Virus record (IMG/VR): IMGVR_UViG_3300045125_000089
Location: 5,499-69,498 of that record
Reading direction: 5' to 3' (one strand)
DNA: 64,000 nt
DNA from: a virus
The notes beneath the pieces were generated by a model. The model saw only the letters and a list, made by a program, of their open reading frames with translations, made no database searches and was not told where the DNA came from. The position numbers were made by a program, and so were the translations under genes. Within the stretch, counting starts at the first letter, position 1. Every line of letters begins with the position of its first letter. Below are positions 31,754 to 54,771 of this stretch, in pieces.

Positions 31754-32197
31754 TTAAAAGAAAGTTATAAATAAAAATGGATGTAATACATTATTTGCAA
31801 CAACATTTGGTACATTTAAATCGCCGGTCATATTTAACGAACCCGTAATAAATACACTACCACTTATATCCAACGCCGCATTATGTAATGGAGATTTTCT
31901 TACACCAACACTACTGCCTGTAACAACCAACGCATTAGTATTAAATCTTCCCATTACAACTCTGTCGTCGCTAAATACTTCTAATATAGGCAATCCAGAA
32001 ATATCACTAACTGCCATCAAACTGCCAGAAAGATTATCTGATATGCTAAACAAACTGCCAGAATTGCCAAGAAATGCTATACTACCAGAAGTTAATACTT
32101 CTAATCTTATAGTATTAGCCTGACTGCCGCTGAATTGTATAACAGGTGCGGCTGAAGTAGAACTTCTGTTTGGTATTATAAGAATGTCCGATGGCAT
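31754..32197 (-). CDS. Stand-alone copy of a tail-fibre repeat module
   Basis: Intact 147-aa ORF containing FSGSQANTIRLEVLTSGSIAFLGNSGSLFSISDNLSGSLMAVSDISGLPILEVFSDDRVVMG, a module that also recurs within 60.9-63.8 kb. Confidence 0.7.
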   Translation of the reverse strand: MPSDILIIPNRSSTSAAPVIQFSGSQANTIRLEVLTSGSIAFLGNSGSLFSISDNLSGSLMAVSDISGLPILEVFSDDRVVMGRFNTNALVVTGSSVGVRKSPLHNAALDISGSVFITGSLNMTGDLNVPNVVANNVLHPFLFITFF

Positions 32198-32240
32198 AAT
32201 TTATTATATATAAATATAACTATATAAAATATTGATGTTA

Positions 32241-33037
32241 TTATAATCCAAAGCGTGACTTTGATGAGTTATAGTTTTGAGTATTTCGTTGGGGGACAGT
32301 CGCCTATTCCGCGTTTGAACAACACTTACCTTTATAAGGAGCCCAATTACCGTCGCTATATCGTTGGCAAATAACTCAGCGTTGAACATATTCTTAGATT
32401 GACATCTCCACCAGTATTTATGCGCGTTTCCTAAATTATCGTCGAAGTATTTCTACTTAATGTTTGTTTTTCTACGCCATTTATATACAATGAAGCTGAC
32501 CATCGGCGATTACAGTTACATTGTGCCATATGAACCATTTAAATGTGTAATTGAGTTGCTGCATTATGTGTCATACGATACAGTTATAGATTATGAATAA
32601 TCGAGGCCGTAACACCTGCGGTATTGCTATCAACCTGATCGTAGTACTACACATAATACGACAACCGATAGCTTTCTGATAATTTCCTCTGGATGTATAA
32701 TAGAACTATCCTCGGCTGCTTGTTGCCAGAACCCGATAATCTATTCCAAATATTAGATGGTGGCTATGGCCGGACTCAATAGTAGTAGAGTTGATTACGT
32801 CGTAGCAAAATTATACAGGATGTAACAGAAATATAATCATCCGTTCCATCAAACACAAATTCTGCACAATTTGAAGTACTAAAATGTAACTCCGCCGTTT
32901 AGTGTACCGATATATCCATTTCTACTTAAATCTATACCAAGCAATTTCCACTACCACGGATAACTCTTATTATTTGCTGCATCCAAATGCAATACTAAAC
33001 CATTTGATGTTGTCTTGATTGGACCTTCTATGCTCAT
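32241..33037 (-). CDS. LamG-like paralog 14 (frameshifted)
   Basis: MSIEGPIKTTSNGLVLHLDAANNKSY..FVFDGTDDYISV ... RRLSPNEIL..RFGL*. Confidence 0.68.
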
Positions 33038-33704
33038 AATCCAAATCTTGTTTTTGTTGCGTTATAGTTTTGAAGTACTTCGTTAGGAGACAATGCTCTA
33101 TTGTATACTTTGCACATTGCCAAACTTCCATTATAGTAAAATCCTCTACTTCCATTAAACCCTCCGTAAACTCCTATAGAAGAACCATTTGTATTTGTAG
33201 AAATAGTTCCTGTTTGTAGTTCGAGTTTACTAAAACGCCATTTATATACAATCTACGTGTTCCGCTAACATACGTACCAACAACTTGTGCCCAATTTGAA
33301 GTACTATATATGTCGCCGTTGTAGTTGAAAGTGTTGTAGTGCTGCCGCCAATATTTTGTCTCCAAAATATAGCAGTTCCTTCTTGAAATAGACTATATTG
33401 TGTATTAACTTGTCCTTTTCCAAACCGAAACCCATTCTGATTAAGATTGTTTGTTTTACCCAAACTTCCACGGATGGTGTTTGTGTATTCAATGCAGAAT
33501 TTTCTGGGGAAATTATTGTACTGGTAGAGCCATTAAAACTAAAATTTCCTCCGCGTTGTATGTTATATTTGATAATGTGAAAGTATTACTACCAACTAAA
33601 TCATTTAATATCGTATTTGAAGCCGGACAACTTTTTGAGTTTTTTATGTCAACAAAAAACACCAATCCATCCGTAACTATAGTTGGTCCGTTATAATAGC
33701 TCAT
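33034..33704 (-). CDS. LamG-like paralog 13 (frameshifted)
   Basis: MSYYNGPTIVTDGLVFFVD..SVEVWVK..WAQVVGTY..RLYINGVL ... YNRALSPNEVLQNYNATKTRFGL*. Confidence 0.75.
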
Positions 33705-34377
33705 AATCCAAATCTCGATTTTAATGCACCATAATTTTGTAGATGCTCTTGATCTGTCAGTTGGCGATTATACATTGCTACATATGCTAATCTACCTTGA
33801 AAGCCTCTGCTTGAATATCCACTGGTTCCTAAATAGTATCTAAACGAAGACGCAAAATTACTTTGATTTGTTCTATATCCCCGAGTATATTCCCAACCAC
33901 AGAAACCAGCGTAGTTGCTCCTCCTGTTCCATTTAAATAATATTCTTGTAGCAGTTGTTTGTGTCCAATCGTTTGCGTCCGTACCCGTTGTGCCAACATT
34001 ACGTATTACCCACGGTCCAGTTCCATTTGCATGATTGAAATCTTAAACTATCGTCTGCCCCAACGGCGGGTGTGCTAGACGCAATAAGACCGGCTAAACC
34101 TGCCATGCTCACTCTGGAAAAATCAGGCTGAAATACAATCGTCATATCCAAATATGCCTGACTTATATTGTCCGACTCTATGTAATTAGAATCATTTGCA
34201 GTAGCAAAATTGAAATAACTTTGAGGTCCGGCAGACACAAACGAAATAGTGCCAGCAATAGTACCATTTGCTCTACCAGTTATATCAGTCCAAGTAGTAC
34301 CACTGCCCGCATAACTTTTTGGATTGCTTAGCGCTCCAAACAAAGTATCAATCCATTACTAACTATCCTTGGCCCAT
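33701..34377 (-). CDS. LamG-like paralog 12 (frameshifted)
   Basis: ..NPKSYAGSGTTWTDITGRANGTIAG..YFNF ... NRQLTDQEHLQNY..RFGL*. Confidence 0.65.
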
Positions 34378-34398
34378 AATCAAGGCATATAATAAACT

Positions 34399-34665
34399 TT
34401 ATGGCATACTGCCAGTCATTGGACTACACCATTCACTTGTGCTTAATATTTCAAGTATTTCAGTATGTGTATATGGACCTTCGCTGCCAATAATAGTTGC
34501 TACAAATGCTGGTGCATCGCCATTCCATTTTACCAATGTCTTTGTTTCATCAACAGACTTTCTTACTGTATCTGCGGATGTTTCTAATACTTGACTAAAG
34601 TCAACTTTATTTAGTTCGCTGACTGGGAATATAAGATATTCTCTATTTTCGTATATATCGCTCAT
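34399..34665 (-). CDS. Small conserved phage protein
   Basis: Intact 88-aa ORF: MSDIYENREYLIFPVSELNKVDFSQVLETSADTVRKSVDETKTLVKW..YTHTEILEILSTSEW. Confidence 0.7.
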   Translation of the reverse strand: MSDIYENREYLIFPVSELNKVDFSQVLETSADTVRKSVDETKTLVKWNGDAPAFVATIIGSEGPYTHTEILEILSTSEWCSPMTGSMP

Positions 34666-34711
34666 ATGTTATTATTATAGTTTAAGGTTGTATATATAAA
34701 TATAATGATGG

Positions 34712-35459
34712 TCATAAACCATAGCGGCCTTTTGTGGCGTGATAATTTTGGCGGACTTCTTTTGCGGATAATGCTCGGTTGTATATATTCAATATTGTAT
34801 ACTATCCATGTAGCCGTGTATAAGTACCAGCTCTGTGCGTGATACAGATGGCGAGCTATTCATCATTTGCAGCAGTATTACCTATTAAGTTACTAAATAA
34901 ATGTTGCAGTAATTAGCCGTTGCTTTGCAAACTGAGCAAATGAATTGCCGTTGTAAGCTATAATCGAATATACTCGCAGTTCTATGAGTAGAAGAATATA
35001 TTTGCATTGTTTACCGAAGCAACTGGTCCGGTATATTGTTCCGAAGCTATATAATAGCTTGGTTCGATCGACACATGTATCAAGTGGCATAAGGGTAGCC
35101 GTTTAGCATCTGACCTATTATCTCAAAATAACATTATCTGACATGAGTACTATTTTCTGCTGCATACTATTATACCAAAGATTCGATGAGAATAGTACAT
35201 GCTGATGCTCCATATTGTAAAATCTGTAACTGTTATATCACAAACTACTGCAGCAATCACTCTAGCTACCATCAAAAATCAATCACTCCACCATTCACTA
35301 TTGATATACGCAGGTCCATTTATCAACGAACCTGTATTTCCATTTCTACTCAAATCAAAACCAAGTAGTTGCTGCCGCTTATGATGCTTCAATGTGCCTG
35401 CATCCAGATATAATACCAAACCATCTGTATACAATATCTGGCCCGCCTTCTACGCTCAT
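34712..35459 (-). CDS. LamG-like paralog 11 (frameshifted)
   Basis: MSVEGGPDIV..GLVLYLDAG ... YNRALSAKEVRQNY.ATKGRYGL*. Confidence 0.65.
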
Positions 35460-36174
35460 AATCCAAACCTTCCTTATTTGCGTTGTAGTTTTAAAGAGTT
35501 TCTTGCCGCTGATAATGCTCAGTTGTAGACTTCTAACGCCACCAATTCCGCCAGAATCATTGTCCATAATCTCCGTAACCTACATCGAGTATAATCTACA
35601 TTACAGTAGTTCGTGGACTTAACCAATCCAGTTCTTTAAAGTTACCCATTGAAATATAATGCTGGGTTGTTTATTGTTGTATACAGCAACACGTGAAATG
35701 ATATGCTGGATATAGATGCGGTATATACCAAAATTCGAGCTAATAATGAGTTTCCGTGATATTATGACTACCACAGAATTGTTCCCACCGACATACCAGC
35801 ACCAGAATTAGTAGAATCATTTGCGGGAGCAATTATATTTCTTTGAGAAGCAACTCAGCTAGGCCAGTACCAGTACTTGCTTCAGTCACTGCTAAATTGA
35901 TAGAAGTTGGTCTACACCACCTTCATATGTAAAATGTTAGTTGGCATTCAGACTGGCACGTACATATAGCATTGGTCGTTTGTATTATCAAACACATATG
36001 TTACCAATATTGCTACTATTAAAGTTGGTCCAATACAAAGAACCTGTGTTGATTATTTCCACTTAAATCAAACCGGGTAGTTCCAGACTGCCGGGATAAC
36101 TCTTTCTGATTTCCCGCATCAAGGCACATTACTAAACCATTCGTTACCATTTTTGGTCCATTGCTATAACTCAT
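35456..36174 (-). CDS. LamG-like paralog 10 (frameshifted)
   Basis: MSYSNGPKMVTNGLVMCLDAGN ... LSAQETL.NYNANK.RFGL*. Confidence 0.65.
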
Positions 36175-36857
36175 AATCCAAACCTTCCTTTATTTGCGTT
36201 GTAGTTTTGAAGAACTTCAGTGGCAGATATGTGTCGATTGCACATCAATACCTGTGCTATATTTCCGCTCAATATTCGCTGCCACCTGTTTGTCTTCCAA
36301 TTTGTGCGTTAGTTAACAACAGTGTTCCAAGACCGAGCCGTAGGCCCAGAAACCAATTGACCGTTTATATACATAGATGCGTTAGTTCACATTATATACT
36401 CCAACCAAATTAAACCCAAACTCCCGTTTTGCAGCCCCTGAAAGTAATATCGCTGTTATATCCACCCAAAATAATATGTTTGAACCTAATCTACCAATAA
36501 ATCTTGATTGATTATTTTGCTGCTGTGCCATATGAAATAAATCCAAGCAGTACTTTGCAACAACAAGAATTTAGCGGATTGCCCAACAGCAGAGATTGTT
36601 CCCGCAGAAGGCTCCAAATGGAAAACTGGCAGTTCCTATTGGTTTGCACCAATCCTTGCCCCACCATCAAACAAAATAACTCCACCATTTGCAGCACTGA
36701 ATGTAGGTCCATTTGTTAATGAACCACTATTATTGTTATTTATACTCAAATCCAAACCAAGTATTGCTGCCACTATTATAACTATTTCTATTTGCCTGCA
36801 TCAAGGCACAATATTAAACCATCCCTTTATGATATCTGGACCTCCATCTACACTCAT
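36171..36857 (-). CDS. LamG-like paralog 9 (frameshifted)
   Basis: MSVDGGPDIIKDGLILCLDAGNRNSY..NGPTFSAANGG ... EVLQNYNANKGRFGL*. Confidence 0.68.
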
Positions 36858-37674
36858 AATCCAAACCTTCCTTTTGTGGCATTATAATTTTGGCGGATCT
36901 CTGCATGCGGACAGTGCTCTGTTGTTATACCTTAAATATAGAAGCATTTTAGGTACTATTGCCAGGACGGGTATAGTTAAAGCATCCAGCACAATTCTGA
37001 TGTAACGGTAGTCGCATTCGTACTGTATGCAGTCTGTACGACGGTTGATGTATTAGATATTGTTTGCGCTGTCCTGAATACAGTATTTTTATGTCACTCA
37101 TCGCCACACCGAAGTAGACCATGTACTAAGCCACCGTTACTTTAAACAGCGATTTGTGTGGACTAATGTTGCGGGACCAAAGCGTTGTGGATCTATTTGT
37201 ATCTGCCATCACACCAAGCCTTTCCGTAGTCTCATTTCTAGCCAATATCAGATAATCAGTATAATCGCTAGTTTGCTCCTGTGTTGAAGCCGTATCTGAA
37301 CGGGTCCTCTGTTGCCCCAGCATTTCCTTTACCAAATCATTGGGTCCAACGCCCCCGCCAAGTCGTACTTGAAGTGTGTTCTCATCCAAAGTTCGAATAT
37401 GCTCCAATTCAGACATGCACTAGTCTATAGAATCTGCACTGTGTGCATACGTCTAACATAATTCATTTGCTCCCGAAAATGATAATTCTCCGCCATAATT
37501 GGCAGAACCTGTTGAAGGAGAAGTTACACACGGCTTTAATATCTCCGTTGTTTCCTCGCTTGTTAAATCCGCCCAAAACCGTGCCACTACCCAGGATAAC
37601 TTCTGCTATTACCAGCATCAAGATGCAGCACTAATCCATCTGTTACAATTTTTGGTGAATAAAAAGTTGCCCAT
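36854..37674 (-). CDS. LamG-like paralog 8 (heavily frameshifted)
   Basis: PKIVTDGLVLHLDAGNSRSYPGSGT ... YNRALSA..QNYNATK.RFGL*. Confidence 0.62.
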
Positions 37675-37680
37675 ATTTTT

Positions 37681-38430
37681 GCAACCCAAACCTTCCTTTT
37701 GTTTGCGTTGATAGTTTTGTACGATATTTCTGCTGCGGATAATGCTCTAGTTATATATTCTTACGTCGAGCTGTATCTCGACCATTAAAAATAGCTCTAC
37801 GACTCCCCAGTGCAGGACCTCTGTGCCAGTGGAACTGGAAGACATTCCGGCACCAGTGTTATACCGGCACCAGAAAGATTTCGAGTTTCGTCCAATATAC
37901 CGTTTACGTAAGAACTTGCGCCCAGACCGCGGTGTTAGTTGTAGCAGACATCATACCATTGATTTGTACTTAACGCAGAGTTTCCGTCAATCGTCGTACG
38001 TTGCAAGGGTTGAGCTATTATTACTAAATCTGCATTTCCGGATGCTAATTTTGGGCTGCTAGTGCATAACACCACACCCCGTCATGACATTGCTTCTCTA
38101 CCTCTAATGCCGCCCAATTACCATATGCCAGAGTATTCCCAGAGCCCACGCCATATCACAAATGTAATTGTAGTAGTAAGTTTGGCGGTATGGGCAGACT
38201 GGTTGCTGATCTCCGCAAGTACGTAATCATCCGTACCATCAAACACTATACTACCTCCATTTTGCACTTACGATGCGTTGGTCCATGTAGTTAACGAGTC
38301 CCGTTATTTCCACTTCCTGCTCAAATCACTCCACAGTTGTTCCGCTACCAGGATAGCTTCTATTATTACCTGCGTCCAGATATAATACCAATCCATCTGT
38401 TACTAATTTTAGGCCGTTGTTATAACTCAT
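37681..38430 (-). CDS. LamG-like paralog 7 (frameshifted)
   Basis: MSYNNGLKLVTDGLVLYLDAGNNRSYPGSG..GGSIVFDGTDDYV ... YNRALSAAEI..RFGL. Confidence 0.7.
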
Positions 38431-38443
38431 ACATTATTATATA

Positions 38444-39833
38444 TTAGGCCAATGATGGAAATCTTGCTGTTGTCCAATCAATAACAACATTATCAAAGTT
38501 ATAACTGCCAGATGGACCATAATTGTTTCTAGGATTTGACCATCCTGCTCTAAAATATGATATAGTAGTTGTTGCACTGGCCGCAAAAGAGCTTCCAACA
38601 AAACTGCCTGTAACATCATACAATTCTCTATAATATCCTACTCCGCCAACAAATAATATATCTAGTCTATAGTATGTATTTGGTAATGCTTGTATGCCCA
38701 TCAAATATTGCTCAAAGTTTGATGGTCTATTCATCGCTATTGAATCGGTTCCAAAATCGCCATATACTACAAAATTAAATCCACCAGTACTTGCAAATCG
38801 TGTATACATACTAATTGATACTCTGCTTGATGCTGGAAAATTATATTGAAACCACGTATTTATGCCACCGCCATATGCAGGATTTAATGTAATACTTCTG
38901 CTACCTCTTGTAGTTCTATTATTTACTTTATTTATTCTATTTTGAGCAAAGTTAGAACCGCTGAATATATACGCAAATCCGTTGCCAACAAGGGACCAGT
39001 CAGAGCCAGTTCTATTATCTGTGGCATCCAAAATTGTTGTATTTACAACATTGTCTGGTATTTCAAATGTAAGTACGCATCTGCATATACACTTGGCTCG
39101 CTCAAATATCTATCTCTGCCAAAATTGTATAAACTTTGTATTTGTGATGCATTTAGAGCAGTATTATATAAACTAGATATTCCGATATCTCCTTTGAAGT
39201 ATCTATTTGAACTTAATTTTTCTGCACCAATTTGTATTCTATCCGCGTTAAATTGATATGCACTACCAGACCTCGAACCCGTTCTTACTAATGTGCCGTC
39301 AAGATATAATGATAATCTATTATTTGATATATGCTTCAACGCCAGTCACCATATACCATTTATCATAAAAAATGATGATGAAATTGTATATTGTGTTGAC
39401 AGTCCATTGTAAAATGTATCTAGATTATAAACGGCAAATCAGTCATTGACCCAGATACTGTTGATGATGTTGTATTTGTTCGTATGCTAAATTGGTCTGC
39501 TGATGCACTCATTATGCAAAATAAACCAGCGTTCTGGTCCGATGCAAGTGTTTCTTTCAGCCTGTCTAAACCACAAATTTATTGTCTTAGATGATACACT
39601 TGATGATGGATTGGTATATGTTGTAGAAGATATATAATCGTCGATGGCGTCGAATGTAAAATAGCTTTACTTGATGTGGAATAACTTACTCCGATTTACT
39701 CAAGAAGCACTATGATTAAAAGGTGCAATAGGACTAAATATAGTAGTACTGCAGTTATATAAGACTTTGGTCCACTGGATCACAGTTTATATCAAACTGT
39801 CATTGATTACTTTTGAACATATAATGTTGCCAT
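38444..39833 (-). CDS. LamG-like paralog 6, apparently fused to an extra C-terminal beta-rich domain (frameshifted)
   Basis: ..SYFTFDAIDDYI..LSLYLDGTL..FKGDIGISSLYNTALNASQIQSLYNFGRDRYL, which probably continues into ORF 38444-39031. Confidence 0.6.
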
Positions 39834-39861
39834 ATATATAACTATTGTATATATACACTTT

Positions 39862-40642
39862 TTATGTTAGACCAAATCTCTTCTTTTCTACGTTATAGTT
39901 TTGAAGAACTTCATGTTGGAAGACTAATGCTCTATTATACATTCGCACAGAAGCAACATTGCAATCTGCGTTAAGCGTATATGTGGAACCAATATTGCTG
40001 CCTATTGCTATTCGTAAATTATGGTTACTTGTGTATTTACACTAGGTGCAGAAAACGAGACTTGTTCCCAAAGATACGCCATTTATATATGTAGTTAAAG
40101 TATTTCCACTTCGCACAACGATGCATAAAACCAAGAATCAATAACAATATTTGTATTTGATAATCCTATTGAAGCAGTCAGGGCTGCGACGCATTCATAA
40201 TCGCCATTCCATATTTCATATCTTAGACTTGAAGTGACATACATAAAACATCGAGTGATATCCTCTATATACAAGTAATGCACTGGCAACTTCTGTAGCA
40301 TCGTGGGCTGTTGGGCTTGAGTTATTTATTTTGCCCAAATTTCTGTTGTATGATTTCCGTATAAATAAGTTTCCAGCACCAAAGCTCCAGCAACAGTAAT
40401 ATCTGCATATCCACCATTTTCTGCGGTGGGTGCAACAGTTCTTGAAAATTTTATAGATTTACTAGAGTTTCGTAAGAATAATATGTTGGATTAGACAAAG
40501 TAAAATTTCTTGCATTGCCACTTAAATCTATCCAAGTGGCACCACTGCCAGGATAACTCTTGGTATTTCTTGCATCCAAATACAATTGCAATCCACTTTG
40601 CACTACTCTGCCAAGACCTGCTGCTACTCCATATGCACTCAT
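39862..40642 (-). CDS. LamG-like paralog 5 (frameshifted)
   Basis: MSAYGVAAGLGRVVQSGLQLYLDARNTKSYPGSGATWIDLSGN ... EVLQNYNVEKKRFGLT*. Confidence 0.72.
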
Positions 40643-41355
40643 AATCCAAACCTTTTCTTTGTTATGTTATAATTGTTTAGTATTTCTATTGAAGATAATG
40701 TTCTGTTATAAACTGTAATTTGAGGTATATAACCTTGAAATGGAATATTGCCCACAGTGTTTGCCCAATGTCTACCAACTTGATAGTTGTTGGTTTTAGC
40801 AAAATTTCCACTGTTCCAAGTTATTGTACCAGAGTTTTGAAGCAAAGTTCCGTCCTTATAACAATAAATATTCAAGTGCTGCCCCGATTTTGATATTACA
40901 ATATATAGCCATTTATTTATATGCGTGCCAATGTCAAATATTCCACTTTCTAATACTCCGACTTGATTTACACCAGTAAAATTATACGGCGCAGCAACAG
41001 ACCCATTTCCAAATGTCATTGAATATGCATAATTTGTGGCAGGAGAAGGAGTTATTAAAAATTCCTTGCCATATTTGATTTGCGTTTAATTTGTATGCCC
41101 AAGCCGTTTGTGTAAAACTTCCCGTGAAAATATCTCCATTAATACTACCACTTACCACATCGTCAGTCCCGTCAAAGCTAATTGCTCCTTGATTTGTGCC
41201 GTTAAAAGTTGGACCATTAGTTAATGACCCGCTACGACTATTCCCGCTCAAATCTCTCCAAACACTACTACCACTAACAAAACTTTTCTATTACCCGCAT
41301 CGAGGTATAATACCAAACCATCCGTAACTAATCTGCCTCCTGAATTATAACTCAT
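40639..41355 (-). CDS. LamG-like paralog 4 (frameshifted)
   Basis: MSYNSGGRLVTDGLVLYLDAGNRKSF..NGPTFNGTNQGAISFDGTDD ... YNRTLSSIEILNNYNITKKRFGL*. Confidence 0.75.
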
Positions 41356-41619
41356 ATGAACTTGTCTCCGGTGCGGCCAATCCCCAAATAACACATTGTT
41401 TTATATAGTTGATACTGTTTCGTTGCAATTTTCTTCATCACTCAAACCATCTGGAATATCAATGTATATACCATCATCAAATTGTTCCATAGTAAGAGTT
41501 CCATTATAAAACAATCCAATATTGTCTGACACAGTTGTTGCAAACGATGCAACTTCTGCATAACTAGAATTGGTTAGTTTTCTAGCAAAGTGTAAATACT
41601 TTGGTTCATCGTATATCAT
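41352..41619 (-). CDS. Small hypothetical protein
   Basis: MIYDEPKYLHFARKLTN.. with ATGA overlaps on both sides. The 3' end is uncertain (41401 as called, 41352 if frameshifted). Confidence 0.5.
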
Positions 41620-42409
41620 CTTATATAAATCTCCACTCTTGCTGCTCTATTAATGCCGGTAGTATCTTGACAACAACTGATTCTATCACCGGCAGAATAA
41701 CCTTGCCACGTTCCCGGCATCATACCTATTCCGCCACTAACATCGTCACTATCCATGTTTCCGTTGGGATATAATCCACCACCATTTTCATTCCATCCAA
41801 ATCCCCATCTAGTTCGTGCCGTACCTGGATTATTTCTATAGTTATATCCATAAAATCTAACATCTACTTGACTTGAAAATATACCACTTGCCCAACCAGA
41901 ATATGTTTTGGCGTCTCGTATAAAATATCTATCTACTGTATTAAAGAACGTAGTAGGCACAATTCTTGCGCCGCCATAAAAATCATTTTGCAACCAAGTC
42001 CATTGACCAGTGCCAGGTATACTACCACCTGTTCCCGGTTGTGATATCCGGCCAAATAGCAAGCATATCTTTTGCTCTATAATAATTCATAACATCAAAC
42101 TTTAGCGTCGCCGTTATTTCTATTTGTTGCAGAAAGAACTGAATGTATTTGATGCTGTCCAATAACTGGCAGTATATCCAAAAGTAAGTAGAACTTGTTG
42201 ATGCTTTAAGTGCAAGCATCCATCCGCCGCCATCATATGAGCCAGTCATTAAACAATATGTTTGTGTAGGTCCAACACCCTGGTAAATTTATCCAATATA
42301 CACCATTTGTTGAATTTGGATAATTATATAAAATTGATACGGCACTGAGTGCAGCCTTGTCTGCTGAACTGCCATCATTTCTATTTATTAGACCAAACCG
42401 GATTGACAT
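41616..42409 (-). CDS. Fibrinogen C-terminal/intelectin-like domain protein (frameshifted)
   Basis: NGVYWINLPG.GPTQTYCLMTGSYDGGGWMLALK (YC.....GGGW signature), with C-terminal RWGFGWNENG..DDVSGGIG..AGDRISCCQDTTGINRAARVEIYIR. Confidence 0.7.
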
Positions 42410-42460
42410 AAACTTGTTATAATTTAGTTGTATATAACTATTGTATATATACACTTTATG

Positions 42461-43169
42461 TTAGGCCAAACTTCTTCTTTTCTAAGTTATAGTTTTGTAA
42501 TACTTCGGATGCGGATAGTGCTCGGTTGTATCTCAAAACATTAGCTATTCTTCCATTTAAATGGGCCGAATATACTGGGTATAATGGAGCACCGCCCATA
42601 TATAAAGTGCCCGCGCCGAAACTATTTGAAACATTTCCAGTAACAATTAAATTTCCATTTTGATATATTTTTGGGAAGAAACTCCATCTCGCACCAATAC
42701 AATATTATGATAGCGATTAACGGCATATTTATTCCAGACAACGCACAAGAACCGGTGGTATTTCCTCCGTATCTTCCAAACCAAATGAGATAAGGAGGAC
42801 CAGCGGCGTTGCCAGATGTGATAACAACAAATTCAATTGTATCAGGATTATTCCAAGAAAAAATTACCCTTCGCTCTATACAAATCAAGATTTCCAGATA
42901 TATTTCCATTAAAATAAATCCAACAACTTAGTGTAAAAAGCTCAGTACCAGATGGTGCAGCTTGTGCGGTCATATAGTCATTACTGCCGTCAAACACAAT
43001 ACTGCCCCATTATCACTATTATATGTCGGTCCATTTATCAAAGACCATATTGTTATTTCTACTAATATCAATCCGTGTACTGCCACTACTTCAACTCTTA
43101 AAGTTGCTGGCGTCTAAATATAATACTAATCCATCTTGTATTATTTTTACCTGGTGCTGCTGTGCTCAT
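42461..43169 (-). CDS. LamG-like paralog 3 (frameshifted)
   Basis: MSTAAPGKIIQDGLVLYLDASN ... YNRALSASEVLQNYN. ATGA overlap with paralog 2. Confidence 0.7.
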
Positions 43170-43885
43170 AATCCAAACCTTTTCTTTGTTTGCGTTATAG
43201 TTTTGAAGAATTTCAGCATCACTTAGACTTCTAAAATAAACTTGAGCCATTGCTATTCTACCTGTGTGAAAAAGAAGGAACGGTGTAATCCATGAGGGAA
43301 CGCTACCTAGCCTGAATAGTAAATTGGATTGAAAATCTAAACCATTCCATTGAGATATTGTTGCTGTACCTGTCGTGGATATCTGTGTTCCATTTAAATA
43401 CATTTTTATACTAGAACTCCTGGTAGCCACATTGTAGTAACCATATGCCACGTATTTAACGGCATAGTATTAGCACTCAATACAACTACATCTGCTCCTC
43501 CGTTGCCTTGGACAAATGTTTCTAATTTTGTTCCGATGTATAACTTAAACTGTATCTGTAATTTTGTGCGCCCGCTCTAGATTTACTAATCAGTGTTTGA
43601 GGTGATGCTGGCGCTGCTGTTTTATATGACCACACATTTTATTGTTAAATCATTTGTTCCTAAATCGAGAACGTCTCCGAGCAAAACATTGTCATCACTC
43701 CATCAAAAACAATACTTCCGCCATTAACACTGCTATGTTGGACCATTAGTTAATGTACCTGTTCTTTTGTTTTCAGTTAAATCCGTCCAAGTACTACTAC
43801 CACTAACATAACTTTTGTAATTGCTAGCATCCAAATATAATACCAATCCATTGCTTACTACTTTTGCTCCTGTATTATAACTCAT
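43166..43885 (-). CDS. LamG-like paralog 2 (frameshifted)
   Basis: MSYNTGAKVVSNGLVLYLDASNYKSY ... RSLSDAEILQNYNANK..FGL*. ATGA overlap with paralog 1. Confidence 0.7.
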
Positions 43886-44642
43886 AATCCGACCTTTTCT
43901 TTGTTGCGTTATAGTTTTGTAATACTTCTGCTGCTGATAATGCTCGGTTGTACCAACAAACTTGATGCGATGTTTCCATTACCAGCCCTCGGATATGTGG
44001 ATGTGTCTTGATTTCCAGCCCGACTGCTAAAATCATTAGCCGTATTTGCGATGCTTGCGGGGCTAAGATCGTTACCTGTTTTGCATAGCGAAAGGACGCC
44101 ATTTGATAAAATATATTCAAGCTATCCAACGGTTTGGGAACAGGTGACACTTGTATTATACCGGAGCACCGTCAGATGCGTAAAGCCACCCTGCCGACTG
44201 GTCGCATCTGGAAAGTATCTTGGTATGTGAGTGCCACCGTCAGACCTAGATGCAAAATACCTTAACGTTCCACTATCGACTCTGAACAGAGATGAATATG
44301 ATTGGACCGCTCCGATCCGCCTTTATAAACCCCATAATGTGTTGAACGATCCCTAAACTACTTGCCTTTGCACCAGATGCATATGGTCCAAGGCACTTGG
44401 GTTACTTGCGTTTATTAAAGTGCAGGAGTTCCCAATGTTACATAATCATTTGTTCCATCAAAACTAAGCACACCACCATTAGCACTACTAAAGTCGGACC
44501 ATTGGTTAATGTTCCATTATTTCCATTCCTACTAACATCAGCCCAAGTACTGCTGCCGCTAACATAACTTTTATAATTACCAGCATCAAGGTATAATACC
44601 AATCCATTACTTACTATTTTTGGACTATAATTGTGTAGACAT
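43882..44642 (-). CDS. LamG-like paralog 1 (frameshifted)
   Basis: SPKIVSNGLVLYLDAGNYKSYVSGS..NGPTFSSANGG..FDGTND ... RALSAAEVLQNYNATK.R.GL*. Confidence 0.7.
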
Positions 44643-44647
44643 ATATT

Positions 44648-47600
44648 TTATATTTCTACTATTAGTTTTGGTATATCTTTACGTTCCGCCTGTACTAGAT
44701 AATAACAATATATATTACCATCATCGTTATTGTTGCTGATATAGATATATTCTGAGCTTGTGCTTGTTACAAACAAGTTTTGATAACTACCTATTGGTGT
44801 CAACTGAACTGTAATAGTATTTTCATCAACTAGATTTTTCCAATAATCTGGTAATGCTATTAGTGAACTATTGGATATACCACGTACAAATACACCGTGT
44901 TCTGGACCTTCAAGCACACCATATTGTAGTTTCCTATTTTCCAACGTTGGATGGTCAATAAGGAATGACTTGGCGGTTGCGGTTAACAATCCATTTATGG
45001 CAACTGCGCCGGTAATAAATGTAGAACCAGTAATAAATGCAGAACCAGTGACATTAAATGAACCAGATATTATAGTATTTCCAAGTATATCAAATGGTCC
45101 ATTAGCTGTAGTTTGTTTACTCCGATGCTTGTACCAGATTGATACATCACACTGTTCTCTAATCCAGTGCCTGCTCCATTTACTTTTGGTATATAATGCG
45201 GAGATGCACCGGCAACAGATGCGCCGCTGGTTCCACTAGAACCGCTCGTTCCGCTTATTCCATTTGTACCAGTGCTTCCACTTTGTCCGCTGGAACCTTG
45301 TGTGCCACTTGTACCAGATGTTCCACTACTACCAGATGAACCAGACGTTCCACTAGTACCAGATGTTCCTCTGCTACCAGATGAACCACTTGTTCCACTT
45401 GTACCGGAAGAACCCGATGAACCACCAGACCCTCCGATTCCGCTTATACCAGAAGAGCCACTACTACCAGATGAACCGCTGGTTCCGCTTGTACCAGATG
45501 AACCAGATGTTCCGCTTGTACCTGAAGTTCCACTGCTGCCGGATGTACCACTGGTTCCGCTTGTACCAGATGAACCTGATGAACCAGTTGCTCCACTTAT
45601 TCCAGAAGAGCCACTACTACCAGACGTGCCACTGGTTCCACTTGTACCAGACGAACCAGATGTTCCGCTTGTACCTGAAGTTCCACTGCTGCCGGATGTA
45701 CCACTGGTTCCGCTTGTACCAGATGAACCTGATGAACCACCAGACCCTCCGATTCCGCTTATACCAGAAGAGCCACTACTACCAGATGTGCCACTGGTTC
45801 CACTTGTACCAGACGAACCAGATGTTCCGCTTGTACCTGAAGTTCCACTGCTACCGGATGTACCACTGGTTCCGCTTGTACCAGATGAACCTGATGAACC
45901 AGTTGCTCCACTTATTCCAGAAGAGCCACTACTACCAGACGTGCCACTGGTTCCACTTGTACCAGATGAACCGGATGCGCCACTAGTACCAGATGTTCCT
46001 CTGCTACCAGATGAACCACTTGTTCCACTTGTACCGGAAGAACCCGATGAACCACCAGACCCTCCGATTCCGCTTATACCAGAAGAGCCACTACTACCAG
46101 ACGTACCACTGGTTCCACTTGTACCAGATGAACCGGATGTTCCGCTTGTACCTGAAGTTCCACTGCTGCCGGATGTACCACTTGTTCCACTTGTACCAGA
46201 AGAACCCGATGAACCACCAGACCCTCCGATTCCGCTTATACCAGAAGAGCCACTACTACCAGATGTGCCACTGGTTCCACTTGTACCAGACGAACCAGAT
46301 GTTCCGCTTGTACCTGAAGTTCCACTGCTACCGGATGTACCACTTGTTCCACTTGTACCAGAAGAACCCGATGAACCACCAGACCCTCCGATTCCGCTTA
46401 TGCCAGAAGAACCACTACTACCAGACGTACCACTGGTTCCACTTGTACCAGAAGAACCAGATGTTCCGCTTGTACCTGAAGTTCCACTGCTGCCAGATGT
46501 ACCACTAGTTCCACTTGTACCAGAAGAACCCGATGAACCAGTTGCTCCGCTTATGCCAGAAGAACCACTACTACCAGACGTACCACTGGTTCCACTTGTA
46601 CCAGAAGAACCAGATGTTCCGCTTGTACCTGAAGTTCCACTGCTGCCGGATGTACCACTGGTTCCGCTTGTACCAGATGAACCTGATGAACCAGTTGCTC
46701 CACTTATTCCAGAAGAGCCACTACTACCAGACGTGCCACTGGTTCCACTTGTACCAGATGAACCGGATGCGCCACTAGTACCAGATGTTCCTCTGCTACC
46801 AGATGAACCACTTGTTCCACTTGTACCGGAAGAACCCGATGAACCACCAGACCCTCCGATTCCGCTTATACCAGAAGAGCCACTACTACCAGATGTGCCA
46901 CTGGTTCCACTTGTACCGGATGAACCAGATGTTCCGCTTGTACCTGAAGTTCCACTGCTGCCAGATGTACCACTTGTTCCACTTGTACCAGAAGAACCCG
47001 ATGAACCACCAGACCCTCCGATTCCGCTTATGCCAGAAGAACCACTACTACCAGACGTACCACTAGTTCCACTTGTACCAGAAGAACCCGATGAACCAGT
47101 TGCTCCGCTTATGCCAGAAGAACCACTACTACCAGACGTACCACTGGTTCCACTTGTACCAGAAGAACCAGATGTTCCGCTTGTACCTGAAGTTCCACTG
47201 CTGCCGGATGTACCACTGGTTCCGCTTGTACCAGATGAACCTGATGAACCACCAGACCCTCCGATTCCGCTTATACCAGAAGAGCCACTACTACCAGATG
47301 TGCCACTGGTTCCACTTGTACCAGACGAACCAGATGTTCCGCTTGTACCTGAAGTTCCACTGCTACCGGATGTACCACTGGTTCCGCTTGTACCAGATGA
47401 ACCTGATGAACCAGTTGCTCCACTTATTCCAGAAGAGCCACTACTACCAGACGTGCCACTGGTTCCACTTGTACCAGATGAACCGGATGCGCCACTAGTA
47501 CCAGATGTTCCTCTGCTACCAGATGAACCACTTGTTCCACTTGTACCGGAAGAACCCGATGAACCACCAGACCCTCCGATTCCGCTTATACCAGAAGAGC

Positions 47601-50600
47601 CACCACTACCAGATGTGCCACTGGTTCCACTTGTACCAGATGAACCAGATGTTCCGCTTGTACCTGAAGTTCCACTGCTGCCGGATGTACCACCGGTTCC
47701 GCTTGTACCAGAAGAACCCGATGAACCACCAGACCCTCCGATTCCGCTTATACCAGAAGAGCCACTACTACCAGACGTACCACTGGTTCCACTTGTACCA
47801 GAAGAACCAGATGTTCCGCTTGTACCTGAAGTTCCACTGCTGCCAGATGTACCACTAGTTCCACTTGTACCAGAAGAACCCGATGAACCAGTTGCTCCGC
47901 TTATGCCAGAAGAACCACTACTACCAGACGTACCACTGGTTCCACTTGTACCAGAAGAACCAGATGTTCCGCTTGTACCTGAAGTTCCACTGCTGCCGGA
48001 TGTACCACTGGTTCCGCTTGTACCAGATGAACCTGATGACACCAGTTGCTCCACTTATTCCAGAAGAGCCACTACTACCAGACGTGCCACTGGTTCCACT
48101 TGTACCAGATGAACCGGATGCGCCACTAGTACCAGATGTTCCTCTGCTACCAGATGAACCACTTGTTCCACTTGTACCGGAAGAACCCGATGAACCACCA
48201 GACCCTCCGATTCCGCTTATACCAGAAGAGCCACTACTACCAGATGTGCCACTGGTTCCACTTGTACCGGATGAACCAGATGTTCCGCTTGTACCTGAAG
48301 TTCCACTGCTGCCAGATGTACCACTTGTTCCACTTGTACCAGAAGAACCCGATGAACCACCAGACCCTCCGATTCCGCTTATGCCAGAAGAACCACTACT
48401 ACCAGACGTACCACTAGTTCCACTTGTACCAGAAGAACCCGATGAACCAGTTGCTCCGCTTATGCCAGAAGAACCACTACTACCAGACGTACCACTGGTT
48501 CCACTTGTACCAGAAGAACCAGATGTTCCGCTTGTACCTGAAGTTCCACTGCTGCCGGATGTACCACTGGTTCCGCTTGTACCAGATGAACCTGATGAAC
48601 CACCAGACCCTCCGATTCCGCTTATACCAGAAGAGCCACTACTACCAGATGTGCCACTGGTTCCACTTGTACCAGACGAACCAGATGTTCCGCTTGTACC
48701 TGAAGTTCCACTGCTACCGGATGTACCACTGGTTCCGCTTGTACCAGATGAACCTGATGAACCAGTTGCTCCACTTATTCCAGAAGAGCCACTACTACCA
48801 GACGTGCCACTGGTTCCACTTGTACCAGATGAACCGGATGCGCCACTAGTACCAGATGTTCCTCTGCTACCAGATGAACCACTTGTTCCACTTGTACCGG
48901 AAGAACCCGATGAACCACCAGACCCTCCGATTCCGCTTATACCAGAAGAGCCACCACTACCAGATGTGCCACTGGTTCCACTTGTACCAGATGAACCAGA
49001 TGTTCCGCTTGTACCTGAAGTTCCACTGCTGCCGGATGTACCACCGGTTCCGCTTGTACCAGAAGAACCCGATGAACCACCAGACCCTCCGATTCCGCTT
49101 ATACCAGAAGAGCCACTACTACCAGACGTACCACTGGTTCCACTTGTACCAGATGAACCAGATGTTCCGCTTGTACCTGAAGTTCCACTGCTGCCGGATG
49201 TACCACTTGTTCCACTTGTACCAGATGAACCTGATGAACCACCAGACCCTCCGATTCCGCTTATACCAGAAGAGCCACTACTACCAGATGTGCCACTGGT
49301 TCCACTTGTACCAGATGAACCAGATGTTCCGCTTGTACCTGAAGTTCCACTGCTGCCGGATGTACCACCGGTTCCGCTTGTACCAGATGAACCTGATGAA
49401 CCACCAGACCCTCCGATTCCGCTTATACCAGAAGAGCCACTACTACCAGATGTGCCACTGGTTCCACTTGTACCAGACGAACCAGATGTTCCGCTTGTAC
49501 CTGAAGTTCCACTGCTACCGGATGTACCACTGGTTCCACTTGTACCAGATGAACCGGATGCGCCACTAGTACCAGATGTTCCTCTGCTACCAGATGAACC
49601 ACTTGTTCCACTTGTACCGGAAGAACCCGATGAACCACCAGACCCTCCGATTCCGCTTATACCAGAAGAGCCACTACTACCAGACGTACCACTGGTTCCA
49701 CTTGTACCAGATGAACCAGATGTTCCGCTTGTACCTGAAATTCCACTGCTGCCGGATGTACCACTGGTTCCGCTTGTACCAGATGAACCTGATGAACCAG
49801 TTGCTCCACTTATTCCAGAAGAGCCACTACTACCAGACGTGCCACTGGTTCCACTTGTACCAGATGAACCAGATGAACCACCAGACCCTCCGATTCCGCT
49901 TATTCCTGACATTCCAGATGAACCAGAGGAACCACTTGTTCCACTAGAACCCCCAGACCCTCCTATTCCACTGATTCCACTTACTCCGGACGAACCAGAA
50001 GAGCCACTACTTCCGGATGCTCCACTTGTACCAGATGTTCCACTGCTACCAGATGTACCGCTGGTACCGCTGGTTCCGCTGGAACCTGATGAACCGCCTA
50101 TACCACTTACTCCAGAAGAACCAGAAGAACCACTGCTGCCACTTGTGCCAGATGAACCGGATGCACCGCTAGTACCAGATGTTCCACTGCTACCAGATGT
50201 ACCGCTGGTTCCGCTGGAACCTGATGAACCGCCTATACCACTTACTCCAGAAGAACCAGAAGAACCACTGCTGCCACTTGTGCCAGATGAACCGGATGCA
50301 CCGCTAGTACCAGATGTTCCACTGCTACCAGATGTACCGCTGGTTCCGCTGGAACCTGATGAACCGCCTATACCACTTACTCCAGAAGAACCAGAAGAAC
50401 CACTGCTGCCACTTGTGCCAGATGAACCGGATGCACCGCTAGTACCAGATGTTCCACTGCTGCCAGATGTACCGCTGGTTCCGCTGGAACCGTTGAACCT
50501 GATGAACCGCCTATACCACTTACTCCAGAAGAACCAGAAGAACCACTGCTGCCACTTGTGCCAGATGAACCGGATGCACCGCTAGTACCAGATGTTCCAC

Positions 50601-52436
50601 TGCTACCAGATGTACCGCTGGTTCCACTGGAACCGTTGGAACCTGATGAACCGCCTATACCACTTACTCCAGAAGAACCAGAAGAACCACTGCTGCCACT
50701 TGTGCCAGATGAACCGGATGCACCGCTAGTACCAGATGTTCCACTGCTGCCAGATGTACCGCTGGTTCCACTGGAACCGTTGGAACCTGATGAACCGCCT
50801 ATACCACTTACTCCAGAAGAACCAGAAGAACCACTGCTGCCACTTGTGCCAGATGAACCGGATGCACCGCTAGTACCAGATGTTCCACTGCTACCAGATG
50901 TACCGCTGGTTCCACTGGAACCGTTGGAACCTGATGAACCGCCTATACCACTTACTCCAGAAGAACCAGAAGAACCACTGCTGCCACTTGTGCCAGATGA
51001 ACCGGATGCACCGCTAGTACCAGATGTTCCACTGCTACCAGATGTACCGCTGGTTCCACTGGAACCGTTGGAACCTGATGAACCGCCTATACCACTTACT
51101 CCAGAAGAACCAGAAGAACCACTGCTGCCACTTGTGCCAGATGAACCGGATGCACCGCTAGTACCAGATGTTCCACTGCTACCAGATGTACCGCTGGTTC
51201 CACTGGAACCGTTGGAACCTGATGAACCGCCTATACCACTTACTCCAGAAGAACCAGAAGAACCACTGCTGCCACTTGTGCCAGATGAACCGGATGCACC
51301 GCTAGTACCAGATGTTCCACTGCTGCCAGATGTACCGCTGGTTCCACTGGAACCGTTGGAACCTGATGAACCGCCTATACCACTTACTCCAGAAGAACCA
51401 GAAGAACCACTGCTGCCACTTGTGCCAGATGAACCGCTTTCTCCAGACGTGCCGCTGCTGCCGGACGTGCCACTGGTTCCGCTTGAACCGTTGGAACCTG
51501 ATGAACCGCCTATACCACTTACTCCAGAAGAACCAGAAGAACCACTGCTGCCACTTGTGCCAGATGAACCGCTTTCTCCAGACGTGCCGCTGCTGCCGGA
51601 CGTGCCACTGGTTCCGCTTGAACCGTTGGTTCCACTAGAACCTGCTATTCCGCTTTCGCCAGAAGAACCAGAAGAACCACTGCTGCCACTTGTGCCAGAT
51701 GAACCGCTTTCTCCAGACGTGCCGCTGCTGCCGGACGTGCCACTGGTTCCGCTTGAACCGTTGGAACCTGATGAACCGCCTATACCACTTACTCCAGAAG
51801 AACCAGAAGAACCACTGCTGCCACTTGTGCCAGATGAACCGCTTTCTCCAGACGTGCCGCTGCTGCCGGACGTGCCACTGGTTCCGCTTGAACCGTTGGT
51901 TCCACTAGAACCTGCTATTCCGCTTTCGCCAGAAGAACCAGAAGAACCACTGCTGCCACTGTGCCAGATGAACCGCTTTCTCCAGACGTGCCGCTGCTGC
52001 CGGACGTGCCACTGGTTCCGCTTGAACCGTTGGTTCCACTAGAACCTGCTATTCCGCTTTCGCCAGAAGAACCAGAAGAACCACTGCTGCCACTTGTGCC
52101 AGATGAACCGCTTTCTCCAGACGTGCCGCTGCTGCCGGACGTGCCACTGGTTCCGCTTGAACCAGACGAACCACTCGAACCAGATGCACCAGACGAACCA
52201 CTCGCACCTTCCGCAAATAAAGCATACGAAGCAGTCAATGCCTGCAAAGAATATGAAGCTGTATATGCCCAGCTTGCGGTTGCGGCAAATGCTCCGCTTG
52301 GCAAACTTGAAGTTATTGCACCATATAAATCAGTTGTTGTCCACCAGCCAGAGCTGCTGTTGTATATAGGCACATAGTTATTTAACTTATCAGTTAATTT
52401 TACTTCTATGGATTCTCTGCCTATTAGTCTGGCCAT
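44648..52436 (-). CDS. Giant Ser-Gly-X repeat (collagen-like) fibre protein, about 2,600 aa
   Basis: N-terminus MARLIGRESIEVK..TASWAYTASYSLQALTASYA, then about 7 kb of SG[T/S/I/A] triplets, then C-terminal TATAKSFLIDHPT..LQYGVLEGPEHGVFVRG..LPDYW..VQLTPIG..AERKD, a typical fibre C-terminal domain. Only about 4 indels (near 45115, 48039, 50495 and 51960). Confidence 0.85.
45230..52230 (-). repeat. Hierarchical intragenic tandem repeat (9-nt base period; 135-nt, 144-nt and 1,351-nt higher-order units)
   Basis: gttccactgg recurs at 50621, 50765, 50909, 51053, 51197 and 51341 (144 nt). 135-nt units start at 50073, 50208, 50343 and 50478. Off-frame ORFs 46785/48136 and 47073/48424 have identical translations offset by 1,351 nt. 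Confidence 0.9.
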
Positions 52437-52812: not shown

Positions 52813-52832
52813 GGTTTATATAAATATATAGA

Positions 52833-54767: not shown

Positions 54768-54771
54768 AAAC

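Follow-up and report, generated by a model that had tools for sequence, protein, structure and literature searches.

Fourteen divergent LamG_3 genes behind a collagen-like phage fibre gene: a genuine array probably interrupted by assembly errors

Can a run of interrupted, lectin-like reading frames beside a phage fibre gene be a genuine gene set, and do the constant ends of its otherwise divergent products serve as docking parts or belong to the fold itself? We examined this in a 64,000-nucleotide stretch of a freshwater phage (the window, whose numbering is used throughout). The tandem array proposed by a sequence-only reading of this DNA was confirmed as 14 co-directional, single-domain Laminin_G_3 (ConA-like) genes running on the minus strand from 44642 to 32241. 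Across this interval the family profile matched 30 pieces, all on the minus strand, and we counted 14 C-terminal motifs of the QNYN..K.RFGL type and 13-14 N-terminal GLVLYLDA motifs. The features, in the direction of transcription, are as follows.

44648..52436, minus strand: giant Gly-X-Y (collagen-like) fibre gene, ~2,500 residues, directly upstream of the LamG array
43882..44642, minus strand: LamG copy 1, at least 9 frameshifts; only 63% identity to its guide; begins just after the fibre stop at 44648
43166..43885, minus strand: LamG copy 2, 8 frameshifts; 73% identity to the intact 240-aa P0081
42456..43169, minus strand: LamG copy 3, at least 6 frameshifts; terminus ..FGLT-stop, then a spacer with a 27-nt repeat
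41616..42409, minus strand: non-LamG gene, about 265 aa; phrog_1325 (function unknown), no Pfam match for its product; intact orthologue L012:337-1131
41350..41680 (approximate ends), minus strand: small non-LamG gene, about 110 aa; orthologue L012:1074-1403
40639..41355, minus strand: LamG copy 4, 2 frameshifts, each at a short homopolymer; 88% identity to the intact 239-aa P0038
39862..40642, minus strand: LamG copy 5, 6 frameshifts; 80% identity to the intact L012:2112-2888
38444..39833, minus strand: LamG copy 6 with a 221-aa C-terminal domain, 11 frameshifts; 87% identity to the intact 478-aa L012:2878-4311
37680..38430 (3' end approximate), minus strand: LamG copy 7, at least 6 frameshifts
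36854..37676 (start approximate), minus strand: LamG copy 8, broken; reconstruction covers the N-terminal part only
36171..36857, minus strand: LamG copy 9, 8 frameshifts
35456..36174, minus strand: LamG copy 10, at least 2 frameshifts; the DNA at its start matches L012:5699-6005 at 84% identity
34712..35459, minus strand: LamG copy 11, at least 3 frameshifts
34399..34665, minus strand: intact non-LamG gene, 88 aa, function unknown; similar small gene within the L021 and L040 arrays
33701..34390 (start approximate), minus strand: LamG copy 12, at least 2 frameshifts
33034..33704, minus strand: LamG copy 13, 4 frameshifts
32241..33037, minus strand: LamG copy 14, at least 4 frameshifts

For copies 1, 3, 7-11 and 14, the guides used in reconstruction were distant. 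The stand-alone proteins comprise about 225-260 residues, each a single Laminin_G_3 beta-sandwich, with copy 6 and its extra domain as the exception; three non-LamG genes are interspersed, and a solitary fifteenth LamG copy lies beyond the window at 66529-67237 in the same numbering. The exact junction GGATTATGAG is found at 8 copy boundaries, where the stop TGA overlaps the next ATG, and such ATGA overlaps probably chain the LamG genes into a co-translated array. Its proposed adjacency to a giant fibre also held: the array sits in a tail-fibre module, flanked by and co-oriented with fibre genes, as it does in at least 13 related loci, and it is the fibre gene's conserved C-terminal domain (phrog_17490/28536) that recurs beside LamG arrays in these loci. 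A TATTTATA motif is present upstream of the fibre gene.

None of the 14 copies is open as sequenced, whether read with table 11 or with TAG, TGA or TAA reassigned, and each carries at least 2 to 11 single-base frameshifts. For comparison we used the related locus L012, which is 82% identical over 4.07 kb of the array and in which all ORFs are intact. Every one of the 26 non-multiple-of-three indels between the two is exactly 1 nt long (14 missing, 12 extra), and after indel correction dN/dS against L012 is 0.10-0.18. No bona fide nonsense substitution was found in the array copies, either in the reconstructions or in the L012 comparison; stops left in well-guided reconstructions, one of them in copy 6, adjoin inferred frameshift sites. 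Contigs of two other runs match L012 at positions 38334, 39073, 40021 and 40059. The low dN/dS, together with the lack of true nonsense changes, argues for assembly errors and against decay or recoding. These comparisons thus point to single-base assembly errors in genes that would in reality be intact and under purifying selection.

That the array might instead be a graveyard of decaying pseudogenes, with real frameshifts in genes dispensable to the phage, has in its favour that all copies are broken and that the array has, for its length, about six times as many indels (26 in 4.07 kb) as the fibre genes beside it (4 in 3.5 kb, 55950-52470); our guess is that low read support over a strain-variable stretch may cause this density. 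Given a very low background omega, the measured dN/dS could also mask, by our estimate, about 4% of recent neutral divergence. We nevertheless regard decay as very improbable, since the frame-breaking indels are uniformly 1 nt with gains and losses balanced, coding constraint persists free of nonsense changes, and the arrays of relatives are intact, while the core gene UvsX, outside the array, is likewise split across three frames and open frames are short throughout the contig. The relaxed constraint of a pseudogene array (dN/dS near 1, nonsense changes, indels of mixed length) was not what we observed. An alternative genetic code or programmed frameshifting would be more remote still, to the point of being negligible: reading TAG as Gln does give a 2,525-codon frame across the neighbouring repeat gene, but this comes from reading the Gly-X-Y repeat out of frame, the LamG copies stay closed under every stop reassignment, and the frame changes are scattered, fall at non-conserved sites and are absent from relatives. 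On the assembly-error account, the array appears broken in this contig because of residual single-base errors only, and automatic gene calling on contigs with such errors will miss the entire LamG family.

With the reading frames restored, we compared the paralogs along their length, using the window's reconstructed copies and three intact related arrays. As the sequence-only reading had noted, the ends are conserved and the core is variable: mean paralog identity is 0.40-0.60 over positions 1-63, 0.17-0.20 over 64-205 and 0.51-0.55 over 206-239, and an alignment of 33 intact homologues displays the same pattern. Synonymous sites are saturated alike in the ends (pS 0.57-0.78) and in the core, whilst the ends have half the core's pN, and the longest exact repeat in the array, of 27 nt, is intergenic. 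This substitution pattern suggests that the ends are held constant by protein-level selection and not by gene conversion, and the notion that copies recombine through their constant ends was not upheld.

The proposed LamG/ConA fold is supported by profile scores, by an AF2 model and by VIA-align matches. Against PF13385, the window fragment 40639-41019 scores 28.7 bits (gathering cut-off 27.6) and intact orthologues score 38-129 bits. The model (pLDDT 86) is a single jelly-roll sandwich with a strand at residues 14-19, the last strand at 210-219 and a helix at 225-239, residues 1-13 being flexible; it aligns over residues 11-236 with domain 4 of AbnA, a ConA-like carbohydrate-binding domain (Z 21.5, rmsd 2.6, 195 residues), and at about Z 18 to 19 with neurotoxin HcN and trans-sialidase lectin domains, the matches together spanning model residues 10-236. 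In long forms of the protein, a domain of ~170 aa is nested after strand 1. As single 206-residue ConA-like domains still align across a 399-aa long form (model residues 13-392, 185 residues, Z 20), the nested domain does not take strand 1 out of the sandwich. The non-phage LamG_3 structure 4qvs aligns to profile positions 28-219 (E 4e-17), covering most of both motifs and leaving about 27 N-terminal and 12 C-terminal residues as family-specific. The constant ends are better read as elements of the jelly roll, namely strands 1-5, its final strand and the helix that closes it, than as separate modules for the docking that the sequence-only reading had envisaged; the family-specific terminal residues may be regarded as a candidate added attachment element. 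Fold likeness by itself does not establish function.

The claim that copy content varies was borne out among related phages, in which both the number and the identity of LamG genes differ. L012 is without copies 1-3 and carries two different genes at the place of copies 7-9; L021 has 8 LamG copies within the same flanks, and L043 has 12. Arrays of 5-12 copies beside fibre genes are common in aquatic (freshwater and marine) phage contigs, and 5,636 database proteins fall within the LamG family at E <= 1e-5, nearly all of them labelled 'hypothetical'; our literature searches found no paper on tandem LamG arrays of this kind. On a contig that is about 47% complete, neither a reverse transcriptase nor a resolvase-type invertase was found, which agrees with the expectation that neither a DGR nor an invertase drives diversification. 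For a DGR, there was no RVT_1 match on this partial contig and no near-identical repeat pair in the array. For invertible-segment switching, there was no match on the contig in a search limited to the resolvase type of invertase, and every LamG copy lies in one orientation.

Taken together, this analysis suggests, as a probable if not firm conclusion, a genuine array of 14 old LamG_3 paralogs behind a collagen-like fibre gene, in which errors explain the breaks and the ends are parts of the fold. The paralogs form a co-directional and probably co-translated set within the fibre module of this aquatic phage, a tailed one. The jelly roll would be built and closed by their constant ends, which supply its first strand, the generic LamG_3 strands 2-5, the final strand and the C-terminal helix, and the variable middle would supply the rest of the sandwich and the loops, where copies can differ in binding. 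The proteins may then be adhesin modules that bind glycans and let the virion recognise host surfaces, and their repertoire of specificities may be turned over by whole-gene gain, loss and replacement between related phages. A link to the virion is indirectly suggested by isolates: a LamG domain ends S-PM2 p176, whose annotation is virion structural protein (phrog_8510), and another ends a protein of 489 aa encoded in the baseplate/fibre module of S-SKS1. A 60-64% identical domain is borne by a bacterial prepilin-type protein.

How such proteins would be used admits other readings. Interchangeable lectins could plug into a single scaffold, for instance the neighbouring collagen-like fibre, by way of a docking surface that their conserved termini make up in common. 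This is conceivable, and we hold it at roughly a minority view: arrays recur beside fibre genes with a common C-terminal domain in at least 13 loci, the LamG and fibre genes appear co-expressed (same strand, ATGA overlaps, TATTTATA upstream of the fibre gene), the outermost residues (~27 at the N-terminus, ~12 at the C-terminus) extend beyond the non-phage structure match, residues 1-13 are flexible in the model, and protein-level selection on the ends is strong. Yet most of the constant sequence is fold core common to unrelated LamG_3 proteins, strand 1 stays in the sandwich even in long forms, and the same ends are present in multi-domain proteins and in the fusion to a bacterial pilin, neither of which needs such docking. 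A more speculative and rather unlikely version is a phage 'bouquet', in which a dozen or more monomeric LamG lectins are borne on a very long collagen-like fibre, with the C-terminal helix and the family's own N-terminal strand or tail as points of attachment. A single virion would in that case recognise many different glycans on surfaces, turnover of whole genes would re-tune host range, and receptor recognition would be organised otherwise than in trimeric tailspike clusters or in switching by a DGR or an invertase.

It is decidedly unlikely, in our judgement, that the LamG proteins stay out of the virion altogether, as soluble or intracellular lectins, fibre-assembly helpers or proteins directed at the host envelope in the course of infection. 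In the stand-alone proteins no anchor domain was recognised, the PHROG families of this form are of unknown function, and genes just downstream of fibre genes often encode assembly chaperones, as do lambda Tfa and T4 gp38/gp57. Such roles are harder to reconcile with the homologous domains at the C-terminus of tail- or virion-module proteins in isolates, with the fold match to a chain in a cyanophage tailspike entry, and with the N-termini, in which by-eye inspection found no signal-peptide-like hydrophobic stretch; one fibre with fourteen divergent chaperones would also be hard to explain. If the favoured reading as virion lectins is correct, host range in abundant aquatic phages would depend to a major and so far unrecognised extent on these arrays, which would also be a natural library of small glycan binders.

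Among known systems, PF13385 Laminin_G_3, of the concanavalin A-like lectin/glucanase superfamily, has the same jelly roll, with HMM scores above the cut-off, and shares with the array the '..D.SGNGN.GTL..' / 'FDG.DDY' and 'YNRALS..E' motifs; PDB 4qvs, an S-layer-domain protein, is the nearest solved sequence relative. By comparison, an array protein consists of this one domain entirely, with a family-specific N-terminal strand (GLVLYLDA..KSY) and C-terminal helix (QNYN..K.RFGL), and the family is encoded in phage tandem arrays. Klebsiella phage PhiK64-1 reportedly carries 11 depolymerases in one cluster, and the receptor-binding proteins TSP1-4 of CBA120 are likewise said to be clustered. In both, as in the array, divergent receptor-binding genes are adjacent in a fibre module and their content varies among relatives; however, the proteins of those two phages are large tailspike trimers, each with a defined anchor domain at the N-terminus and an enzymatic beta-helix, whereas the array encodes small lectin-fold monomers with no recognised anchor and a putative attachment to the virion.

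A small ConA-like jelly roll of similar size is seen in chain p (269 residues) of PDB 9vyh, listed as the tailspike entry of cyanopodophage Pan3 (Hou et al., Structure 2026; ref. 68 in PMC13730344); at Z 19.2 over 222 residues (rmsd 3.6) it is only 14% identical, and we therefore read the match as fold likeness rather than as a sign of family membership. In the Streptomyces umbrella toxin particles, diversified lectin domains reportedly dock on common spokes (bioRxiv 10.1101/2025.04.24.650519), so that, as conceived for the array, a diversified lectin set specifies the particle's targets; these toxins are an unrelated system and dock by a separate conserved domain, none of which was seen in the array proteins. 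Display of a LamG-type module on a filament for adhesion is found in the modular type IV pilin PilC of S. sanguinis (PDB 7oa8), and the metagenomic prepilin-LamG protein P0055 (L019) is 64% identical to a phage copy, but these are bacterial, covalent pilin fusions in single copy. The same domain family, at 34-41% identity over the C-terminal part, occurs in S-PM2 p176 (1,058 aa) and S-SKS1 SWZG_00008 (489 aa), two proteins of isolated cyanophages that are encoded within virion or tail-fibre modules; each of them carries it once, fused to the end of a long chain, whereas in the array it stands alone, 14 times over.

The array lies on a 96.7-kb linear IMG/VR virus contig, rated ~47% complete. 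Besides several genes of tail-fibre type, the contig encodes a UvsX-like recombinase and an exonuclease, and nearly all of its genes are on the minus strand. Motif searches of six-frame translations placed 14 C-terminal QNYN..K.RFGL-type motifs and 13-14 N-terminal GLVLYLDA-type motifs on the minus strand from 44642 to 32241, and a profile built from intact homologues matched 30 family pieces in this span, on the minus strand only. Stops or frame changes also interrupt a solitary member found 22 kb upstream of the array.

Genes within and around the LamG array (window numbering)
44648-52436, minus strand: giant Gly-X-Y collagen-like gene, ~2,500 codons, GSSGTSG-type, proline-poor, with a few frame changes
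42409-41616, minus strand: non-LamG gene in the array, ~265 aa, phrog_1325, function unknown
about 41680-41350, minus strand: non-LamG gene in the array, ~110 aa
34665-34399, minus strand: non-LamG gene in the array, 88 aa
66529-67237 (genome 72027-72735), outside the window: fifteenth, solitary LamG-family member, profile match

Behind the giant fibre gene the LamG genes are linked in a chain by ATGA overlaps; the exact ten-mer GGATTATGAG occurs at 8 gene boundaries, where the stop TGA overlaps the following ATG. The motif TATAAATA/TATTTATA matches the window 18 times, compared with 6.9 expected. There are 16 sites on the plus strand, 52819, 34695 and 32209 among them, which correspond to TATTTATA on the gene strand. 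Since TATTTATA is enriched and stands directly upstream of the fibre gene, the 88-aa gene and the first gene after the array, it is probably a promoter motif. Copy 6 carries an additional C-terminal domain of 221 residues. The 265-aa gene, whose counterpart in the related contig L012 lies at 337-1131, gave no Pfam match, and contains a 'DGGGWMLA' stretch reminiscent of intelectin or fibrinogen-related lectins, a tentative lead only. The 88-aa gene has no Pfam or PHROG match; small genes of this type also sit mid-array in distant relatives (L021, about 5592-5920; L040, 9607-9996). Elsewhere in the window, a homing-endonuclease gene (21633-22406, plus strand; phrog_3339, E 1e-52) lies on the strand opposite to almost all genes.

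Neither table 11 nor the reassignment of any single stop codon gives an open frame for any copy. An alternative code was rejected, as TAG as Gln, table 4 and TAA as Gln all leave the copies closed; the 2,525-codon frame that appears with TAG as Gln comes from reading the neighbouring Gly-X-Y repeat gene out of frame. Frames were placed by homologue-guided frameshift-aware alignment, which required 2 to 11 frame changes per copy and reconstructed copies 8, 10, 11 and 14 in their N-terminal parts only; a codon-usage tracker (three-frame Viterbi) was too weak for frame placement in the variable cores. A related freshwater metagenome contig of 6 kb, L012, shares 82% identity with window 42336-38320 and has only intact genes. 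The alignment of the two spans 4,075 bases and shows 26 single-base indels in the window (14 missing, 12 extra) together with five in-frame indels; none has length 2, 4 or 5. Following indel correction, dN/dS is 0.10-0.18 in the 5 orthologous genes. The reconstructions that are well guided have no stop in copies 2, 4 and 5 and a single one in copy 6, two residues from an inferred frameshift site. Copy 4 has two frameshifts (A5-to-A4 and T-to-TT), and its protein is 88% identical to the intact homologue P0038. Contigs from two further public runs side with L012, not the window, at 38334, 39073, 40021 and 40059. Far from the array, the UvsX-like recombinase (e.g. 1609-2594) is split over three frames, and short open frames run along the entire contig, single-base indel errors extending well beyond the array. 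Because L012 is intact, the indels are of one nucleotide, dN/dS is low, other runs disagree with the window and UvsX is itself split, we conclude that the frameshifts in the array are residual assembly errors. Per kilobase, the array has about six times as many single-base indels (26 in 4.07 kb, 38300-42430) as the adjacent fibre genes at 52470-55950 (4 in 3.5 kb); our guess is lower read support over a strain-variable stretch. The run listing named no sequencing run for the array stretch and, for the neighbouring 644-aa gene, only minor shares in runs from freshwater and lakes.

In 33 aligned intact homologues, ~65 residues at the N-terminal end and 30 at the C-terminal end are conserved, but the middle is not. 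Paralogs of the same array have a mean pairwise identity of 0.40-0.60 over N-terminal residues 1-63, 0.17-0.20 over the core (64-205) and 0.51-0.55 over C-terminal residues 206-239. These values are similar in the reconstructed copies of the window and in the intact arrays of the related loci L012, L021 and L038; the constant ends and variable cores described in the sequence-only reading are therefore borne out, as a property of the whole family. Gene content turns over between relatives. In L012 the fibre-gene end is joined directly to the 265-aa gene, so copies 1-3 are absent, as they are in a contig from another run, and two different LamG genes replace copies 7-9. L021 has the same flanks with 7.1 kb between them, compared with 12.4 kb in the window; eight genes of the family lie there, with the same small gene mid-array. 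The 81 related loci include L043 with 12 tandem copies, L046 with nine and 11 others with five or six. Copy content is thus not invariant among related phages. A scan of species-representative genomes returned only relatives of 22-31% identity (MAGs from many phyla) and two short segments of 39-45%, with no prophage or host clue, and megablast against isolated phages gave only one 41-nt match.

The same reading had proposed that the constant ends dock interchangeable lectins onto a common scaffold, perhaps the adjacent giant fibre. The predicted fold points elsewhere. By profile score the family exceeds the cut-off of Pfam Laminin_G_3, whose model spans residues 63-228 of a 241-residue member. 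The AF2 model (pLDDT 86) is one beta-sandwich in which the GLVLYLDA motif forms the first strand (14-19), the W.DLSGN, GTL.NG and FDG motifs form the successive strands, the ..YNRAL motif forms the last strand (210-219) and a helix closes the fold (225-239). Solved ConA-like domains align to this model over residues 10-236 or further: AbnA domain 4 (Z 21.5), GH54 (Z 19.8), chain p of the cyanopodophage Pan3 tailspike entry 9vyh (Z 19.2, 222/269 residues), and the neurotoxin HcN and trans-sialidase lectin domains (about Z 18 to 19). By sequence, the non-phage LamG_3 protein 4qvs matches profile positions 28-219 (E 4e-17), covering most of both motifs. Long forms of about 400 residues carry a ~170-residue insertion directly after the first strand; in a model of one such form (pLDDT 69), single 206-residue ConA-like domains align from residue 13 to 392 (185 residues, Z 20), so the first strand belongs to the same sandwich and the insertion is a nested domain. 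Rather than separate docking modules, the constant ends are, in these models, integral fold elements: sandwich strands and a closing helix. The part specific to the phage family comprises only ~27 N-terminal and 12 C-terminal residues, where an extra role could reside. On the fibre side, the C-terminal domain of ~150 residues (SFLIDHP..L.YG.LEGPE; phrog_17490/28536) has no Pfam match, and in at least 13 related loci it is found on fibre genes adjoining LamG arrays. A complex prediction of three such domains with one LamG protein scored 0.01 and gives no verdict. Four other minus-strand genes (31757-32200, 61003-61233, 62761-62961 and 63602-63799) have a common ~80-residue N-terminal module (…IIPN.S…P.I.F.G…), which also heads a 554-aa fibre-like protein in the related locus L009; with its variable distal parts, this looks more like an attachment module than the LamG ends do.

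Recombination had also been proposed as a source of diversity, but the constant ends lend it no support. In five intact arrays, paralogs differ at synonymous sites of the ends (pS 0.57-0.78) to the same saturated degree as in the cores, and non-synonymous differences are about half those of the cores. The paralogs are old, and selection at the protein level, not gene conversion, holds their ends constant. The DNA of the ends is 60-85% identical between copies, over at most 130 nt, and the longest exact repeat in the array is the intergenic 27-mer AAAGTGTATATATACAATAGTTATATA (gene strand; 39835-39861 and 42431-42457). The ends are a poor substrate for homologous recombination. The 27-nt repeat sits in two spacers without gene overlap, after copy 3 and after copy 5, and may be an internal promoter or processing signal. 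Metagenome contigs show many joints between conserved paralog ends; these were not taken as recombination evidence, because at 80% likeness other phages can be their source. The end of the L012/window alignment, within the conserved N-terminal motif, was likewise rejected as a breakpoint, because conserved ends align even between non-orthologous genes. The proposal that neither a DGR nor an invertase is at work is supported: searches of the ~47% complete contig found no reverse transcriptase or resolvase-type invertase, and every LamG copy has the same orientation.

In S-PM2 the domain forms the C-terminal part of p176, whose annotation is virion structural protein, and in S-SKS1 that of a 489-aa protein in the baseplate/fibre module; these two phages have it in fused form only. 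The cyanophage tailspike entry 9vyh includes a chain of similar size and fold. At the related locus L019 (9497-10702 of contig Ga0315900_10000045, 203.7 kb), a cellular protein with a prepilin-type N-terminus, P0055, has a LamG domain 60-64% identical to the phage copies, a fusion that implies display on a filament; the likeness suggests that these phages recently exchanged the module with a bacterium showing it on a pilus-like filament. The likeliest reading of the LamG array is a repertoire of small putative glycan-binding adhesins that would serve the virion and be turned over by gain and loss of whole genes.

Our literature searches found no paper describing LamG or ConA-like arrays in cyanophages or other phages. 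The array proteins belong to Laminin_G_3. In PhiK64-1 and CBA120, several receptor-binding proteins form clusters, and by analogy the array would resemble these in function, as its proteins would resemble lectin modules on pilins. Compared with all of these, however, the array proteins are small, apparently monomeric, stand-alone and very numerous.
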